Counted from the stretch's first letter, positions 16,892 through 48,549 are shown. The stretch: DNA of 64,000 nt from Candidatus Omnitrophota bacterium (GCA_023247705.1 JAHFFY010000002.1:38251-102250), one strand, 5' to 3'. Translations and numbers: made by a program. Notes: a model not told the origin generated them from the letters alone.

Positions 16892-17230
16892 ATGAATATG
16901 TTTACCAAACAGGAAAAGATTGTTTTGATTTTTTTGATGAGCGTTTTGCTTTTTGGGACGGTTTTGCAATATTGCTTTAAGAAAAATCCTCAATGGGCGC
17001 AGAATTTTTCGGTCCTCGAAAGTCATCGGTCATACGTTAAAATTAATTTGAATACGGCAACTCCTCAAGAGCTGGAAGCACTTCCGTTTATCGGTCCAAC
17101 CCTCGCGCAGCGGATCATTGATTATCGCAAAATCCACGGGTCTTTTTTTTCGCTGGAAGAACTCAAGATGGTCCAAGGCCTGAACCAAGGGGTTTTAAAT
17201 AAAATCACTCCGTTCCTCAAGGTTGACTGA
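16892..17230 (+). CDS. comEA: Competence protein ComEA (helix-hairpin-helix DNA-binding protein).
   Basis: C-terminal 'INLNTATPQELEALPFIGPTLAQRIIDYR' (HhH)2 motif. N-terminal TM anchor. Confidence 0.7.
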   Translation: MNMFTKQEKIVLIFLMSVLLFGTVLQYCFKKNPQWAQNFSVLESHRSYVKINLNTATPQELEALPFIGPTLAQRIIDYRKIHGSFFSLEELKMVQGLNQGVLNKITPFLKVD

Positions 17231-32457: not shown

Positions 32458-34035
32458 GTGTCAACTGATAAATCGACCGACAAAGATTCCCACCGTTCGA
32501 TTATTAAATCGACTTCCATCGTCTCATTTGGGACGCTGTTATCCAGGATTTTGGGGTTTTTCCGGGATGTGATCCTGGCCAAATTTTTCGGAACCGCGGC
32601 TCAGGCCGACAGCTTTTTTGTCGCGTTCCGAATCCCTAATTTATTGCGGGATTTAATGGGAGAGGGGGCGACCAATTCCGCAGTTGTCCCGGTGCTTTCC
32701 GAGTATTTGCATAAAGACAAGAAAGATCTGGCCGATTTAATGAATATCTTGTTCACCTTCTTTCTGGTTGTTTTAAGCGGTGTGACGGTCTTGGGTATTC
32801 TTTTGGCTCCGTTGGTGGTGCGTGTCGTTGCTCCGGGATTTACCTCTGATGTGCAAAAATTCGATTTAACGGTCCAATTAACGCGGATCTTATTTCCTTA
32901 TCTCATCCTGATTGGATTAACGGCTTATAGCATGGGGATCCTTTATACTCTTCGTTCGTTCTTCTGGCCTGCGTTCAGTCCCTGTTTTTTAAATATCGCC
33001 TGCATCGTTGCCGCCTTAGCCGCCTCCGCGACCATGAAAGAGCCGATCCTGGGTCTGGCCATCGGGGTTTTGATCGGAGGGATTCTTCAATTGATCGTGC
33101 AGATCGTCGCTTTACAAAGAAAAGGTGTTTATCTCGGTATAGCAAAGAAATTTAATCATCCAGGCGTTAAACAAATCAAACGCTTGCTGCTTCCGAGGCT
33201 TTTTGGTTCGGGTGTTTATCAGATCAATGTGGTCATCGATACGTTGTGCGCGTCTTTATCCAGTGTCGTTGGTCCCGGGGGGATTTCGGCGATTTATTAT
33301 GCGAACCGGATCATTCAATTTCCGCAGGGGTTGTTCGGGGTGGCGCTGGCGTCCGCGTTGTTACCAGCGATCTCAGGGCTCGCGGCGCGAAAAGAAGTGG
33401 AATCTTTAAAGAAAACGATCCAGTTCGCGTTAAGGATTATTTTTTTGATTTTATTTCCCGTCGCATTCTTTTGCATTTTCTTGTCGACGCCAATTGTCCG
33501 GATGCTTTTCGAGAGGGGGGAATTTGATACCTATTCCACGGCGATTACCTCCACCGCGTTATTATTTTTTGCCCCGGGTTTATTGAGTTATGGCGGGGTC
33601 AGGATCATGGTCACGGCCTTTTATGCCCTGCAGGATACCGTCACGCCGGTGAAGGTCGCCGGGACCTGTCTGCTGGTGAATGCTGTTTTGAATTTTGTTC
33701 TGATGGGGCCGTTGAAAATCGGCGGGATCGCCTTGGCCAGTTCTGTTGCGACCACGCTTAATTTTTTGACGCTGTTTTTTGTTCTGGACAAGAAACTGGG
33801 CGGATTAAAAAAAGGACTTAAGAAATATTTAATGAAGTTGAGCTTTGCTGGTATGATAATGGGTGTCTTTGTCTATTTTAGCTGGCAATTGATCCCCATC
33901 TCTAATGAGTGGGTCAAATTGATGCTGGTCGGCGCGTTGGGGTTGAGTGTTTTTATCCTCATTTGTTTTATCTTAAAGGTTGAAGAAATTAAGAAAGTAA
34001 GCGATGAAATTAAAAAACGATATTCCCGACATTAA
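32458..34035 (+). CDS. murJ: Lipid II flippase MurJ.
   Basis: GTG start. MurJ/MviN N-terminus 'LSRILGFFRDVILAKFFG...ADSFFVAFRIPNLLR'. 14 TM helices. Confidence 0.85.
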   Translation: MSTDKSTDKDSHRSIIKSTSIVSFGTLLSRILGFFRDVILAKFFGTAAQADSFFVAFRIPNLLRDLMGEGATNSAVVPVLSEYLHKDKKDLADLMNILFTFFLVVLSGVTVLGILLAPLVVRVVAPGFTSDVQKFDLTVQLTRILFPYLILIGLTAYSMGILYTLRSFFWPAFSPCFLNIACIVAALAASATMKEPILGLAIGVLIGGILQLIVQIVALQRKGVYLGIAKKFNHPGVKQIKRLLLPRLFGSGVYQINVVIDTLCASLSSVVGPGGISAIYYANRIIQFPQGLFGVALASALLPAISGLAARKEVESLKKTIQFALRIIFLILFPVAFFCIFLSTPIVRMLFERGEFDTYSTAITSTALLFFAPGLLSYGGVRIMVTAFYALQDTVTPVKVAGTCLLVNAVLNFVLMGPLKIGGIALASSVATTLNFLTLFFVLDKKLGGLKKGLKKYLMKLSFAGMIMGVFVYFSWQLIPISNEWVKLMLVGALGLSVFILICFILKVEEIKKVSDEIKKRYSRH

Positions 34036-35293
34036 TCGGAAGATCAATCAATTTCCTCTGACCAGCGGCGTTTATTTGATGCAAGACCGCGCCGGGAGCG
34101 TGATCTATGTGGGCAAGGCCGTGTGCCTGCGTAAACGCGTACAATCTTATTTCGGGAAAAGAAAACAGGTGTTGTCTAAAACCGATATTCTTGTTGCGAA
34201 TGTGTGGGACATTGACTATGTCTTGACTGCGAGCGAAGCAGAGGCGTTGATCCTGGAGGCCAGCCTGATCAAAGAATATCAGCCCAGGTTTAATATCGAG
34301 TTACGAGATGACAAAAGTTATCCTTATATCCAAATCTCCGATGAAGAATTTCCCCGCGTGTCGGTCGTCCGCCCCCGGCAGAAGCGGAAAAAGACAGCGC
34401 CGCATGAGGCTATGATCCAGGAACAGGGGCAATTCTACGGTCCGTATGTGAACCCTAAATTGATCCGTGAAGCGTTGGACATCATCAGAAAAATTTTTCA
34501 TTTCCGTACCTGCCATCCTTTTCCAAAAAAAGCCTGCCTGGATTTTCATATCGGTTTATGCGACGCCCCGTGCATTGCGAACGTGAGCAAAGAGGACTAC
34601 GACAAGATCATCCAAAATGTCTGTTTGATCCTTGAGGGAAAAAAAGATGAATTGTATCATAACTTAAGGTTCGCAATGGAATCGCTGGCCAAAGCCAAAC
34701 GGTTTGAAGAGGCGGCGAAAGTCCGCGACCAGATCCGCGCGATCGGAGCGCTTTATTCGGGGACCAAAGACATCAATTGTTTCAAGGAGGCTGAACAGCT
34801 TCAGCGTGTTTTGTCTCTCCCGCGATTGCCGGAGCGCATCGAAGCCTTCGATATTTCAAACATTCTGGGCAACCAGGCGGTGGGGTCCATGGTCTCGTTT
34901 TTCAACGGCAAACCGGACAAATCAAACTACCGCCGCTTTCGCATCCGCGAGGTGGAAGGGATCGATGATTTCAGGATGATGGCGGAGATCGTTAAGCGCC
35001 GTTACCGCCGCTTGAAAAATGAACAGGCGGTCTTCCCGGATTTGATTGTGATCGACGGCGGGAAGGGGCAGTTGTCGGCGGCGGTTGAACAGCTTAAATT
35101 GTTGAAACTGGAAGTACCGATCATTTCTCTGGCCAAAAGACAGGAAGAAATTTTTTTACCGAACCGCAGAGCCCCGGTTCTTTTATCCCGCGAATCATTG
35201 GGATTGAAATTGTTGCAGCGGGTCCGCGATGAGGCCCATCGTTTCGCGGTGTTTTATCATCGGCATTTAAGAGGAAAACAGAGCTTATCTTAA
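34004..35293 (+). CDS. uvrC: Excinuclease ABC subunit C, lacking the C-terminal (HhH)2 domain.
   Basis: GIY-YIG 'GVYLMQDRAGSVIYVGKA'. The Cys-rich, UVR and RNase-H-like endonuclease domains are present. The ORF ends at '...DEAHRFAVFYHRHLRGKQ', immediately before the IS200 left end. Confidence 0.7.
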   Translation: MKLKNDIPDINRKINQFPLTSGVYLMQDRAGSVIYVGKAVCLRKRVQSYFGKRKQVLSKTDILVANVWDIDYVLTASEAEALILEASLIKEYQPRFNIELRDDKSYPYIQISDEEFPRVSVVRPRQKRKKTAPHEAMIQEQGQFYGPYVNPKLIREALDIIRKIFHFRTCHPFPKKACLDFHIGLCDAPCIANVSKEDYDKIIQNVCLILEGKKDELYHNLRFAMESLAKAKRFEEAAKVRDQIRAIGALYSGTKDINCFKEAEQLQRVLSLPRLPERIEAFDISNILGNQAVGSMVSFFNGKPDKSNYRRFRIREVEGIDDFRMMAEIVKRRYRRLKNEQAVFPDLIVIDGGKGQLSAAVEQLKLLKLEVPIISLAKRQEEIFLPNRRAPVLLSRESLGLKLLQRVRDEAHRFAVFYHRHLRGKQSLS

Positions 35294-35299
35294 TTCAGC

Positions 35300-35870
35300 C
35301 TGATTAAACCACCTGCTAAGCAGGTGGTGATGGACTGATGGCTTCGCCAAAATAAAGATGATGAGTTAGAATGGCGGGATGGGACGATTTAAGAAATTAT
35401 CACATGCGGTATATGATTGTAAATATCACATAGTGTGGTGTCCGAAGTATCGGTATCGAGTGTTATTGGAAGGGAAAGGGAAGTTTGTGGATACGAGTGT
35501 GAGGATGTTGTGTGAGTGGAAGGAATTGGGAATTGAAGCATTGAATGTTCAAAAGGATCATGTGCATGTGATATTGGGAATTCCGCCGAAATATTCAGTG
35601 TCAGAAGTGATGGGGATGCTGAAAGGAAAGACGGCGATCAAAATGTTCCAGAATTATCCTGAGATGAAGAAGAAACCGTATTGGAGGAATCATTTTTGGG
35701 CGAGAGGATATTGTGTGAGCACGATTGGGCTGGATGAAGAGAAGATCAAGAAATATGTGCAATCCCAGGAAGAACAGGAACGACAGGAAGAATCTCAACA
35801 GCAGGAATTCGGCTTTTATCCGAGGTTTTTCAGGTCACCGCCTCTGGCGGTGGTAATTGACTTAAAATTA
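35300..35870 (+). mobile_element. IS200/IS605-family insertion sequence (tnpA only).
   Basis: Left-end hairpin CCACCTGCttAGCAGGTGG at 35309-35327. Right-end hairpin CACCGCCtctGGCGGTG at ~35828-35844. HuH TnpA ORF inside. Confidence 0.65.
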
Positions 35871-35891
35871 TGTTCAGGAGAACCCAGATGA
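35379..35891 (+). CDS. tnpA: IS200/IS605 HuH Y1 transposase TnpA; the ORF tail reads through the element's right end.
   Basis: 'HVHVILGIPPKYSVSEV' HuH motif and 'WARGYCVSTIG' catalytic Tyr. The C-terminal ~40 aa are low-complexity read-through. Confidence 0.8.
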   Translation: MGRFKKLSHAVYDCKYHIVWCPKYRYRVLLEGKGKFVDTSVRMLCEWKELGIEALNVQKDHVHVILGIPPKYSVSEVMGMLKGKTAIKMFQNYPEMKKKPYWRNHFWARGYCVSTIGLDEEKIKKYVQSQEEQERQEESQQQEFGFYPRFFRSPPLAVVIDLKLCSGEPR

Positions 35892-36193
35892 TCCCTCAAA
35901 CAAAGATTACGGATTTTGAATGGCAGGTTTATGAGATCACTCTGTCCATCCCGATGGGACAAACCTTGTCTTATAAGGAAGTAGCGCAAAAGATCGGCCG
36001 TCCTCTGGCATCCCGCGCGGTCGGCCAGGCTTTAAAGAAAAATCCTTTTGCCCCGGTGATTCCTTGCCATCGGGTGGTGAGAAGCGACGGTTCCCTCGGT
36101 GGGTATCAGGGGACGAAAGGATTGACCAGGAAACAAATTTTATTGGATCAGGAAAAAGAGATATCGACTATTCTTGATGAGCAAAAAAGGTAG
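35888..36193 (+). CDS. ogt: MGMT-family (O6-alkylguanine-DNA alkyltransferase) DNA-binding domain protein.
   Basis: Active-site 'PCHRVV'. About 100 aa, stand-alone. The ATG overlaps the tnpA stop as ATGA. Confidence 0.65.
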   Translation: MIPQTKITDFEWQVYEITLSIPMGQTLSYKEVAQKIGRPLASRAVGQALKKNPFAPVIPCHRVVRSDGSLGGYQGTKGLTRKQILLDQEKEISTILDEQKR

Positions 36194-36436
36194 AGACTTC
36201 AAGGCTTGATCGCTCTATAGGATAAATTCGCAACATTTTTTTAGCAAAGTTTGAAATTACAAATTCCAATGTACAAATCACAACCAATACCGAAATTCCA
36301 ATCCACAAACTTCGGTTTTGAGATTGTTTATTAGGAATTGGGATTTGTTTGTAATTTGAAATTTGTGTATTGTAAATTGGTTGCGGCTTCGCTGCGCTAT
36401 GTTATACAAAAGATAAAATAAACTTACGGAGGGAAG

Positions 36437-37516
36437 ATGAGAATCACTCAATTATTCGCTCAGATGGTGGCCCGCGAGGCATCGGATTTATTTTTAAGCA
36501 TTTATACCGCTCCCCGGGCAAGGATTCACGGAAAAGTCGAAATCATTGATCCGCAGGTCATCTCCAAAGAAGAAATGCAGGAGATTACGGAATTTTTGTT
36601 AGGGTCGGAAGACCGCAAAATTCTTTTTAACAAAAACCATGACCTGGATTTTATCCATCAGGAACCCGGGATCGGTCGTTTCAGGGTCAATGTTTTTAAA
36701 CAGCGCGGTTCTCCGGCGGTGGTGGCCAGGCATGTTTATAGTTCGACAAGGTCGTTTGAAGAACTCAATCTGCCCACGGATCTTTTTAAAAGATTTTGTG
36801 ACGAGTCGAAGGGTCTCTTGCTGATCTGCGGGCCCGCCGGGAGCGGAAAATCTTCGGCGATCGCGAGCATGGTCGATTATATCAATGCGAATTTAGAGAA
36901 ACATATCGTGACCATTGAAGACCCGATCGAATTTTTGTTCCAGAATAAAAAGAGCATTATCAACCAGCGGGAATTAGGGATTGATGTTTTTTCGTATCCG
37001 GTCGCCTTGCGCCATGTAACCCAGCAGAGCCCCGATATCATCTTTATCGGCGTGACCCGTGATGAAGCAACGATGCGTGCTTTGATCTCGGCCACCGAAT
37101 TAGGGGCCTTTGTCATCACGACTTTTCATACGGTCAACGCCATCCAGACGATCCACCGGATCATTAATTTTTTTCCGCCCCATCTGCACGATGAGGTTCG
37201 ATTGCAGTTATCGTTAATTCTTAAAGGAATCATTTCCCTGAGATTGATGCCCCGCAAGGACGGCAACGGACGAATCCCGGCGTATGAAACCATGGTCGTC
37301 ACCCCCACCATCGCCCGTTTGATCCGGGAAGGCCAAACCAAGGATATCCAGTCTTTTATTGATGAAGGAGAGCTCTTTGGGATGAGATCGTTTAAGCAAA
37401 GTCTGGTTAAGCTGGTGAAAGAAAACCTGGTCCATGAAGACGACGCCCGCAGGATCGCGGACAGCAAGGATGAGTTTAACCTGGAGTTGAAGGGGATCAA
37501 GAGGAATCAGTTTTGA
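36437..37516 (+). CDS. pilT: Type IV pilus retraction ATPase PilT.
   Basis: Walker A 'GPAGSGKSS'. PilT/PilU family similarity throughout. Confidence 0.85.
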   Translation: MRITQLFAQMVAREASDLFLSIYTAPRARIHGKVEIIDPQVISKEEMQEITEFLLGSEDRKILFNKNHDLDFIHQEPGIGRFRVNVFKQRGSPAVVARHVYSSTRSFEELNLPTDLFKRFCDESKGLLLICGPAGSGKSSAIASMVDYINANLEKHIVTIEDPIEFLFQNKKSIINQRELGIDVFSYPVALRHVTQQSPDIIFIGVTRDEATMRALISATELGAFVITTFHTVNAIQTIHRIINFFPPHLHDEVRLQLSLILKGIISLRLMPRKDGNGRIPAYETMVVTPTIARLIREGQTKDIQSFIDEGELFGMRSFKQSLVKLVKENLVHEDDARRIADSKDEFNLELKGIKRNQF

Positions 37517-47379: not shown

Positions 47380-48117
47380 ATGGAGGATGAAAAGGAATTG
47401 AAATTAAGACGCAACATCATGACTGTCCTGACATGTTTATGGCTTGTGGCCTACCTCTTTACCCTCGGGATGGATCACTTTATGTCGGTGTATGAATATC
47501 CTTTTGTCTCGTTCTTTTTATTGTTATGGCTCATCGGGATGATTGTTGTTTCCAGAAATAAGGAGTGGGGAAGAAAACTGATCGTGGTCACCAGCGTGTT
47601 CATGTGTTTTTATCTCATGGCGGACATGGCGGCCTTTGATGTTTATTCGATCGCGTTGATTTTGATTTTTGTCGTGATCATTGTTTTTTATATCCTGCCC
47701 AAGACCAAAGCCCAATTCCAAGTCAACGACGGAATTTTATCCAAAGGACACAACAGGAAAATTCTGGTTGTCGATGACGATAAGGGGCTTTTAAAAATGA
47801 TCCGGTCCCAGTTAATGTACAACGGGTTCGATGTGATCACCGCGGATACCGGAGAAAAAGGTTTGAGTCTGGCCAAGACCAAGAAACCGGATTTAATTAT
47901 CCTGGATGTGATTCTTCCCGGGATGAAAGGCCGGCAGGTATGTGCTCAGCTTAAACGGGATTCCGACACCAAAAATATTCCGGTCTTGTTTTTGACCGCC
48001 AAAGATTCCCCGGATGACGTGAAAGCGGAATTGGAAGCGGGGGCCGTCACCCATCTGACCAAGCCGGTTGATTTAAAGAAATTGTTGACCGAGGTCATCA
48101 GAATTCTGGCGTTATAA
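47380..48117 (+). CDS. Membrane-anchored response-regulator receiver protein (4 TM + REC, no output domain).
   Basis: GGAGGA RBS. REC domain 'KILVVDDDKGLLK...DLIILDVILPGMKG...LTKP'. Paralogue of the next gene. Confidence 0.65.
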   Translation: MEDEKELKLRRNIMTVLTCLWLVAYLFTLGMDHFMSVYEYPFVSFFLLLWLIGMIVVSRNKEWGRKLIVVTSVFMCFYLMADMAAFDVYSIALILIFVVIIVFYILPKTKAQFQVNDGILSKGHNRKILVVDDDKGLLKMIRSQLMYNGFDVITADTGEKGLSLAKTKKPDLIILDVILPGMKGRQVCAQLKRDSDTKNIPVLFLTAKDSPDDVKAELEAGAVTHLTKPVDLKKLLTEVIRILAL

Positions 48118-48171
48118 TTTTGCAGAAGATCAGGAAAGAGATTAAATACCGAAGGACTAGGACATGAAACA

Positions 48172-48549
48172 ATGAAAAATTCTAAGAAATGCATTCTCGT
48201 CGTGGATGATGATCGGGCACTTCTGAAAATGGTCCGTTCGGGATTAATGTATCAAGGGTATGATGTGCATACCGCCTCCAGCGGAGAGAAGGGTTTAAGA
48301 ACAGCCCAACAAAAAAAACCGGATTTGATTATTCTGGATGTTCTTCTTCCGGGGATCAAGGGACGAGAGGTCTGTTCGCGTTTAAAAGAAGATAATGAAA
48401 CCAAAGACATCCCGATTGTTTTTTTGACCGCCAAGAATTCTCCGGACGATGTGCGGGCCGAGTTGGAAGCGGGCGCGATCGCCCATTTGACCAAACCGGT
48501 CAGCATTCAAGGCTTGGTTAATGAGATCCAAAAAATTTTAGGCGTATAA
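48172..48549 (+). CDS. Stand-alone CheY-like response-regulator receiver protein.
   Basis: REC domain with the conserved phospho-acceptor Asp 'DLIILDVLLPGIKG'. About 65% identical to the REC domain of the upstream gene. Confidence 0.75.
   Translation: MKNSKKCILVVDDDRALLKMVRSGLMYQGYDVHTASSGEKGLRTAQQKKPDLIILDVLLPGIKGREVCSRLKEDNETKDIPIVFLTAKNSPDDVRAELEAGAIAHLTKPVSIQGLVNEIQKILGV

Follow-up and report, generated by a model that had tools for sequence, protein, structure and literature searches.

The DNA analysed here is a 64-kb stretch from a Candidatus Omnitrophota bacterium. We call this whole stretch the window, and all coordinates are counted from its first letter. In the window, an insertion sequence (IS) of the IS200 group, which carries only the transposase gene tnpA, is located between uvrC and a short gene of the MGMT/Ogt type (mgmt). 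An earlier reading made from the sequence alone, the sequence-only reading, had placed an IS200-type element exactly at this junction, and this was confirmed by a Y1_Tnp match, by the hairpins, and by ends defined with sibling copies. That reading had left two explanations for the short UvrC protein: either the IS landed at the 3' end of uvrC and removed or displaced its HhH tail, or UvrC is naturally short and the IS sits in the operon junction. Our results support the latter. The main features of the locus are as follows.

34004-35293, + strand: uvrC, 429 amino acids (aa), a naturally HhH-less compact form, with the TAA stop at 35291-35293 (Pfam, TIGR00194, PDB alignments and homologue lengths)
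35294-35862, + strand: IS200-group insertion sequence, tnpA only, 569 base pairs (bp), its top strand being the + strand of the window (aligned with ten sibling copies)
35379-35891, + strand: tnpA open reading frame (ORF), 170 aa, consisting of the ancestral 146-aa TnpA at 35379-35816, an extension of 24 codons to 35888, and TGA at 35889-35891 (ORF, profile matches and relatives)
35863-35887, + strand: original uvrC-mgmt spacer, 25 nucleotides (nt), with the Shine-Dalgarno sequence AGGAG of mgmt at 35876-35880 (read from the sequence)
35888-36193, + strand: mgmt (short MGMT/Ogt type), 101 aa, with the active-site motif PCHRV and without the N-terminal domain (PF01035, TIGR00589)

Ends, target and family of the insertion sequence

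The boundaries of the element were determined by aligning the window copy with ten sibling DNA copies located at unrelated sites (loci L081, L093-L100 and L102; proteins P0121-P0129). The siblings were collected from the contigs of TnpA relatives and from a metagenome scan, and they come from Omnitrophota metagenome-assembled genomes (MAGs) and groundwater metagenomes. The alignment showed that similarity begins at TTCAG... (35294) and that the right end, ...TAATTGACT / ...GGTGGTAATTGACT, is at 35862; the flanking sequences diverge right outside both ends. The element is thus 569 bp long rather than 570 bp as first given, and the full-length siblings are 567-568 bp. No target-site duplication was found in the aligned copies, and the right flanks were unrelated to the left flanks in all of them. 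Nor were terminal inverted repeats found at the ends of the element; the hairpins at both ends are subterminal. The features at the two ends are listed below.

35290-35293, + strand: target and left cleavage tetranucleotide TTAA, host DNA, not duplicated and including the uvrC stop (the sequence shared by the siblings starts just after it)
35304-35307, + strand: putative left guide TTAA, 4 nt immediately 5' of the hairpin foot (copies with target TTAA also have TTAA here; L098 and L099, with target TTTA, have TAAA)
35308-35328, + strand: left subterminal hairpin (IPL), arms ACCACCTGCT/AGCAGGTGGT, 10 bp, with one unpaired base (a) between them (fold search, single-stranded DNA (ssDNA) folding and siblings)
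35835-35853, + strand: right subterminal hairpin (IPR), with the 7-bp stem CACCGCC tct GGCGGTG at 35836-35852 (fold search, ssDNA folding and siblings)
35853-35862, + strand: right terminal 10 nt, GTAATTGACT; the flanks diverge directly after ...GACT in all copies, which marks the right cleavage site (sibling alignment)

The CCACC of the left hairpin begins 15 nt past the uvrC stop, as the sequence-only reading had stated, but one loop base in the sequence that it quoted was wrong, and the true sequence is CCACCTGCTAAGCAGGTGG. The stem of this hairpin was constant in eight copies, while the loop base was A, G or T. At the right end, the stem of the siblings has an eighth pair, C-G, which the window copy lost through a C>T change at 35835. 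In L081 and L102 the right stem carries a compensatory change, CACCGGC...GCCGGTG; that is, the stems of both hairpins are kept in the other copies. When the ends were folded as ssDNA and compared with shuffled sequences, the left end gave z = -3.8 (0/200 as good) and the right end z = -2.6 (3/200). The folding energy of the right end as ssDNA was -8.7 kcal/mol in the window copy versus -12.2 in L081. Each full hairpin pattern occurs once in the window, where 0 are expected, so that neither hairpin is repeated elsewhere in it in the manner of repetitive extragenic palindromic (REP) arrays. The left hairpin as an intrinsic terminator was unsupported, because no T-run follows it and it was not listed in the terminator scan.

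The tetranucleotide directly 5' of the element was TTAA in the window copy, L081, L093 and L095, and TTTA in L098 and L099; it was ambiguous in L094 and L096. Guide and target go together as TTAA with TTAA and as TAAA with TTTA, the latter in a single covarying lineage at two sites, with a putative pairing register. A guide/target rule of this type has been described for IS608 (PMC3201880, PMC5934647), and the TAAA guide with the TTTA target is what an IS608-style rule would predict. In a more distant multi-copy relative (L106-L114), in which the boundary is ambiguous by 1-2 nt, the rule was not confirmed. The TAA of the TTAA is the stop of uvrC in the window copy and the stop of a peptidase M17 gene in L081. 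Targeting of stop codons by the family was considered and rejected, as the element is directly after the stop of a long gene in only two of eight copies.

Then the transposase was compared with known families. Residues 11-130 of TnpA matched the Pfam family Y1_Tnp (PF01797) with E = 2.6e-38, covering 120 of the 121 profile positions, and the NCBIfam IS200 equivalog model NF033573 gave 144.5 bits against a cutoff of 55. The HUH motif, H61-V-H63, and the motif Y126-VQS-Q130, in which the metal-binding Gln is four residues after Tyr, both align with solved TnpA structures, although these structures are distant (E = 1e-19 to 1e-24). Y126 was aligned with Y132 of ISDra2 TnpA (2XM3), which we take to be the catalytic Tyr of that enzyme. 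The HUH motif and the catalytic-Tyr position claimed in the sequence-only reading were therefore present. The gene tnpA is the sole gene-sized ORF on the 569-bp element's top strand, and the element has no space for tnpB, whose absence sets the IS200 group apart from the IS605 group.

The IS200 group, for example IS200 of Salmonella, with IS608 and ISDra2 as the paradigms, has a Y1 HUH transposase, about 146 aa long, and subterminal hairpins but no terminal inverted repeats; it does not duplicate its target, inserts 3' of a specific tetranucleotide, and has a guide of 4 nt that matches the target and stands 5' of the left hairpin foot. The window element is alike in these points, its guide being putative, and the other defining features of the tnpA-only IS200 group that can be tested in a sequence were all found. 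In IS608, the right cleavage site is 10 nt 3' of the IPR foot and the left cleavage occurs 19 nt from the hairpin foot (PMC3201880). In the window element, too, about 10 nt separate the right hairpin foot from the cleavage site on its 3' side, whereas the distance from the left cleavage site to the hairpin is 14 nt instead of 19 nt, and the target is TTAA (TTTA in variant siblings) instead of TTAC. The element also differs from these known systems in its Omnitrophota hosts and in having no tnpB, and the window copy has lost its tnpA stop (170-aa ORF) and has a weakened right hairpin. By likeness to IS608 and ISDra2, we infer that TnpA would bind both hairpins and that the left tetranucleotide would function as a guide. 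The element is thus an ordinary, previously undescribed copy of the known IS200/IS605 family, which resides in Omnitrophota and has the target TTAA. A BLAST search of the element against plasmids gave weak partial tnpA matches only (67-74% identity over 15-39% of the query).

We examined the relationship of the window copy to its siblings. The closest TnpA proteins showed 73-91% identity and were all 146 aa long; the nine closest end in F, with EFGF in eight and EFLF in one. At the nucleotide level, the window copy was 82-89% identical to the six full-length siblings compared, and 89% was the best value of any copy found. The siblings have the same ends, promoter-like box and hairpins as the window copy. 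They differ from it in length and in genomic site; their tnpA stops at TAG after codon 146, the hairpin across this stop is intact, and the right stem has 8 bp. The copies in L098 and L099 are identical at 568 of 568 positions and are found at two different sites, and the family must therefore be mobile now or have been so recently. That is, as far as compared sequences can tell, mobility is shown for the family by the siblings, the window copy itself apart.

Several other copies showed peculiarities. L094 (258-825) and L100 (1-421) were identical over the 420 nt compared and both had an in-frame TAG at codon 55 of tnpA, while their right flanks differed, which suggests that this nonsense-mutant copy was still moved, perhaps in trans. 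In the sibling copy of L091 (926-1036) and L092, tnpA and the right end were intact and unrelated sequence stood in place of the left hairpin; this copy has presumably lost its left end and become immobile. In L109 and L114, which carry a related IS (TnpA 56% identical; copies L107-L114, sample Ga0207420), the right end was directly joined to the left end (...GGTGGTTTAATTCAATTTAAAAATCC), which points to copies in tandem or to a circle junction that was assembled.

These data also bear on the possibility that tnpA no longer moves and has become a domesticated gene of the host, similar to a REP-associated tyrosine transposase (RAYT) or of another kind. The 64-kb window contains a single copy, and the sibling encoding P0125 was at one same site in all ten contigs listed, as would be expected of a host gene. 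However, the siblings are located at unrelated sites in different genomes, two identical copies stand at two sites, and the full IS200 architecture is preserved at both ends. TnpA also scored 29.9 bits with the RAYT model NF047646, below its cutoff of 80, while it passed the IS200 model, and tnpA was found at the uvrC/mgmt junction in none of six related genomes (0/6). We therefore think that domestication is very unlikely.

A naturally short UvrC

Cutting out 35294-35862 restores the TAA of uvrC, a 25-nt spacer with AGGAG, and then the ATG of mgmt. The empty-site sequence after this removal is ...GCTTATCTTAA joined directly to TAAAATTATGTTCAGG. The genes on both outer sides of the pair, on which the comparison with relatives also draws, are as follows.

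32458-34035, + strand: murJ (ORF and profile annotation of the window)
36437-37516, + strand: PilT/T2SSE-type ATPase gene, the pilT-like gene (ORF and profile annotation of the window)

By Pfam, UvrC of the window consists of GIY-YIG, UVR and UvrC RNase H domains, and no HhH was found. Its score with NCBIfam TIGR00194 was 430 bits against a cutoff of 285. In the alignment with T. maritima UvrC-C (2NRT, 220 aa), residues 9-166 of the chain were aligned, and the alignment stopped at the start of the linker to (HhH)2. Thus UvrC ends after its endonuclease domain without HhH, as had been noticed from the sequence alone. According to the domain and PDB alignments, the protein carries the GIY-YIG 3' nuclease, the UvrB-binding UVR motif and the RNase H-like 5' nuclease.

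We compared this UvrC with those of other genomes (comparison loci L001-L016, L062 and L072). The best 120 homologues in the protein database were 392-444 aa long and had HhH in none of the 120 cases (0/120); those with a named source were from Omnitrophota. In six Omnitrophota loci (L001-L006, 63-72% identity), mgmt directly followed uvrC in all six, and tnpA was present in none; in four of the six, murJ upstream and the pilT-like gene downstream were seen additionally. The C-termini of these six UvrCs end 4-15 residues past the shared motif DEAHRFAxxYHRxLRxK. The distance between uvrC and mgmt in the relatives ranged from a 20-nt overlap to about 190 nt at most.

It is appropriate here to weigh the view that UvrC lost its (HhH)2 tail, by removal or displacement, when the IS inserted or through a deletion that accompanied the insertion. 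UvrC of the window stops where (HhH)2 begins in the UvrCs of T. maritima and D. radiodurans (PMC10085695), and the IS is placed directly after the stop, as this view would have it. But the 120 homologues are equally short and HhH-less, and the six Omnitrophota loci are free of the IS and yet have the same C-terminus and the adjacent mgmt. The stop codon is within the TTAA on the host side, and the siblings show no loss of host sequence. A tblastn search of the window with eight (HhH)2 tails of long UvrCs detected no HhH remnant, so that the orphan remnant for which the sequence-only reading had proposed to look was not there. That reading had also proposed comparing the junction with those of related genomes, and what this comparison gave, the same C-terminus and an adjacent mgmt in IS-free relatives, refutes truncation of UvrC by the IS. 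We regard removal or displacement of the tail as extremely improbable, and the other explanation, a naturally short UvrC with an IS in the operon junction, is borne out by the homologues and the six loci. The best match of the tails in the window, at 17060-17215 (+ strand, E = 0.04), is no UvrC remnant; it looks like a possible HhH repeat of the ComEA type that belongs to an unrelated reading frame.

(HhH)2 was absent from the window UvrC and from every Omnitrophota homologue examined. Beyond the phylum, the tail was also missing in three Planctomycetota loci (L013, L015 and L016), one Vampirovibrio locus and one locus of the Candidate Phyla Radiation (CPR), while it was retained in the relatives of Verrucomicrobia and Lentisphaerae. 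The canonical UvrCs of E. coli, T. maritima and D. radiodurans share with the window protein GIY-YIG, the Cys-rich motif, the UVR/UvrB-binding motif and the active RNase H domain with DxxN...DGG...DEAHRF, whereas they have a C-terminal (HhH)2 and a stretch of about 130 aa between UVR and RNase H, both of which the window UvrC lacks. This stretch, between the UVR motif and the active RNase H domain, is present in long UvrCs and missing from those of Omnitrophota and of the Planctomycetes-Verrucomicrobia-Chlamydiae (PVC) group. It probably corresponds to what PMC10085695 names the RNase H1 platform in UvrC of D. radiodurans. An engineered D. radiodurans UvrC without (HhH)2 kept dual incision, with weaker 5' incision (PMC10085695), and a natural HhH-less UvrC is plausible because dual incision is retained in that protein. 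On comparison with relatives, then, the missing (HhH)2 is shown to be a lineage trait of Omnitrophota UvrC and not damage; UvrC of the window is intact.

The conserved neighbourhood also bears on the question of assembly. The source is apparently metagenome-assembled and the relatives are all MAGs, and repeats often produce chimeric joins; mis-assembly of the metagenome bin might thus have put the IS in a wrong place. The junctions, however, are base-precise at the family target (3' of TTAA) and at the family right end, and removal of the element brings back the uvrC-mgmt neighbourhood that the relatives conserve. In addition, a 113-kb contig is recorded as the source of an identical UvrC protein (P0001). 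We therefore give an assembly artefact very little credence.

The extended tnpA frame and mgmt

In the window copy, the right hairpin does not interrupt the tnpA frame, which closes with a TGA (35889-35891) that overlaps the ATG of mgmt (35888-35890). The coordinates agreed with the sequence-only reading in this point. The features concerned are as follows.

35344-35372, + strand: promoter-like TCGCCA-17-TAGAAT, ending 6 nt before the ATG of tnpA; TTGCCA or TTGCCT in the siblings, with a private T>C at 35345 (conserved in siblings; function inferred)
35809-35823, + strand: remnant of a conserved stop-spanning hairpin, TCGGCT ttt AGCCGA in the siblings, broken by the stop-loss mutation (sibling alignment and RNA folding)
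35817-35819, + strand: former tnpA stop, TAG in 10/10 siblings and TAT in the window by G>T at 35819 (sibling alignment)

Besides having TAT in place of TAG, the window copy is longer by one T in the T-run at 35826-35830. Were this extra T absent, the frame of the TAT mutant would end at the TAA within GGTAATTG. Because of these two changes together, the frame crosses the right hairpin, exits the element and ends at the TGA on the mgmt ATG. Alignment with the siblings shows that the read-through of tnpA is a private stop-loss plus frameshift and no property of the IS, and that the overlap with the mgmt ATG arises by the chance position of the first stop. Two further private changes, G103R and Y129S, affect conserved residues of TnpA.

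The ancestral stop-spanning hairpin has the sequence TCGGCTTTTAGCCGA, followed by (G)GTTTT. Folded as RNA, it gave -8.9 to -11.5 kcal/mol in the siblings and -3.6 kcal/mol in the window copy. This raises the possibility that the stop-loss was adaptive, namely that the G>T change breaks a terminator-like hairpin and the extra T makes ribosomes end on the mgmt ATG, by which polarity would be relieved and the IS absorbed into the operon. If this were true, the IS would have been caught during its absorption into a DNA-repair operon, with transcription and translation flowing again from uvrC or the IS promoter into mgmt as the effect for which the changes were selected. The hairpin is conserved in ten siblings, several of which have a T-run behind it, and is weakened in the window copy; the ATGA overlap requires both private changes; and three of the 16 private changes fall within the last 44 nt. 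These three, however, compare with about 1.2 expected, which is not significant, and an open stretch of 24 codons is not unusual by chance. Moreover, mgmt is provided with an AGGAG of its own 7 nt upstream of its start codon, and the hairpin, a short one, lacks a following T-run in sibling L093. An intact sibling in L081, at an equally tight co-oriented junction (peptidase M17 and Band_7 genes), is without the mutation. We consider an adaptive stop-loss unlikely, and favour a private defect.

The promoter-like box was searched for in its surroundings as well. Five promoter-like matches were found in the region versus 3.9 expected from shuffles, and the box at 35344-35372 alone is conserved in all siblings. 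In these it reads TTGCCA-17-TAGAAT/TAAAAT and is kept 6 nt before the ATG of tnpA, with no Shine-Dalgarno sequence. Since the box ends so close to the ATG and a Shine-Dalgarno sequence is absent, a leaderless or near-leaderless tnpA mRNA is suggested. An antisense promoter-like match, TTTACA-16-GATAAT with a TG extension, lies across the tnpA start (35396-35423, - strand); regional counts of such matches were not above chance. IS200 of Salmonella has an antisense RNA at a similar position.

With regard to mgmt, its protein matched PF01035 with E = 5e-32 and TIGR00589 with 101 bits (cutoff 46), and the PCHR motif of the acceptor cysteine is present as IPCHRVV. The protein, first given as 102 aa, has 101 aa, and its match to the full-length Ogt/Ada models is confined to their C-terminal 80-85 residues; the N-terminal domain is absent. 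The IS points the same way as the operon, so that mgmt is probably still expressed, through transcription that runs on from the operon upstream or from the IS promoter. A short mgmt with the active-site Cys is directly downstream of uvrC in 6/6 Omnitrophota loci, sometimes overlapping uvrC, and this pairing may reflect a link between the recognition of alkyl lesions and nucleotide excision repair.

A search of the region against Rfam matched no family. A 17-nt inverted repeat (36247-36364) that is 88% complementary, with arms 84 nt apart and a nested 11-nt pair, was seen in the AT-rich DNA that separates mgmt from the pilT-like gene. Elsewhere in the window, two diverged pairs of direct repeats were seen, at 47761-48492 and 1041-1624 (300 nt at 71% and 191 nt at 73% identity); as a guess, these are internal repeats of coding sequence.

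Joint reading and its meaning

Taking these results together, we consider it highly likely that an IS200/IS605 element was inserted after the stop of uvrC, that UvrC is naturally HhH-less, that the tnpA extension is a private defect, and that the copy is not demonstrably fresh. Insertion would most likely have followed the single-strand "peel and paste" route into the template of the lagging strand. For the IS200/IS605 family, the top strand is reported to be on the lagging-strand template (PMC5027513). The GC skew is positive over the entire window and the + strand holds 30 of the 37 large ORFs, and for this reason we place the top strand of the element on the lagging-strand template as well. 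The element would have landed directly 3' of the TTAA that holds the uvrC stop, inside the 25-nt spacer of the conserved row of murJ, uvrC, mgmt and the pilT-like gene, and the insertion would have neither removed nor duplicated host sequence. The ancestral TAG after codon 146 became TAT and one T was inserted, and the frame thereby runs out of the element.

The sequence-only reading had called the element fresh and single-copy-looking. The former was not supported, as the stop is lost, private changes have occurred in conserved features, and identity to the siblings compared is only 82-89%; the latter was correct for the 64-kb window, which is the scope of the count. The window copy is not demonstrably fresh and may be impaired; its private changes are best explained by a drift toward inactivity.

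Some points weigh against the joint reading or limit its precision. The UvrCs of the closest available genomes are at most 74% identical, and the empty site was therefore compared above the nucleotide level only. As to the ends, a clean TTAA is wanting in two siblings, L094 and L096, and since every copy continues with TT after the target, the left end can be placed only to within 1-2 nt. The covariation of guide and target comes from one lineage at two sites (6:0 versus 0:2; p of about 0.04 in our own Fisher test). As to the state of the copy, its 16 private changes are within the range of the other copies (3-33). By our own reading of codon positions, the private coding changes are four non-synonymous to seven synonymous, from which it follows that purifying selection acted on TnpA through most of its past and that the protein may have kept its activity. 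Finally, the copy number covers the window only, and an intact master copy elsewhere in the genome is possible.

The main value of this analysis is a correction: UvrC is undamaged, and the locus does not contain a repair gene truncated by an IS. The case also shows that a single stop-loss can make a transposase ORF look as if it were fused into a host operon, which is a trap for annotators. The sibling set provides a natural example of co-variation of guide and target (TTAA/TTAA versus TAAA/TTTA), in line with engineered IS608. The compact UvrC without (HhH)2, found in Omnitrophota and in the sampled Planctomycetota, CPR and Vampirovibrio loci, is relevant to the biochemistry of nucleotide excision repair.

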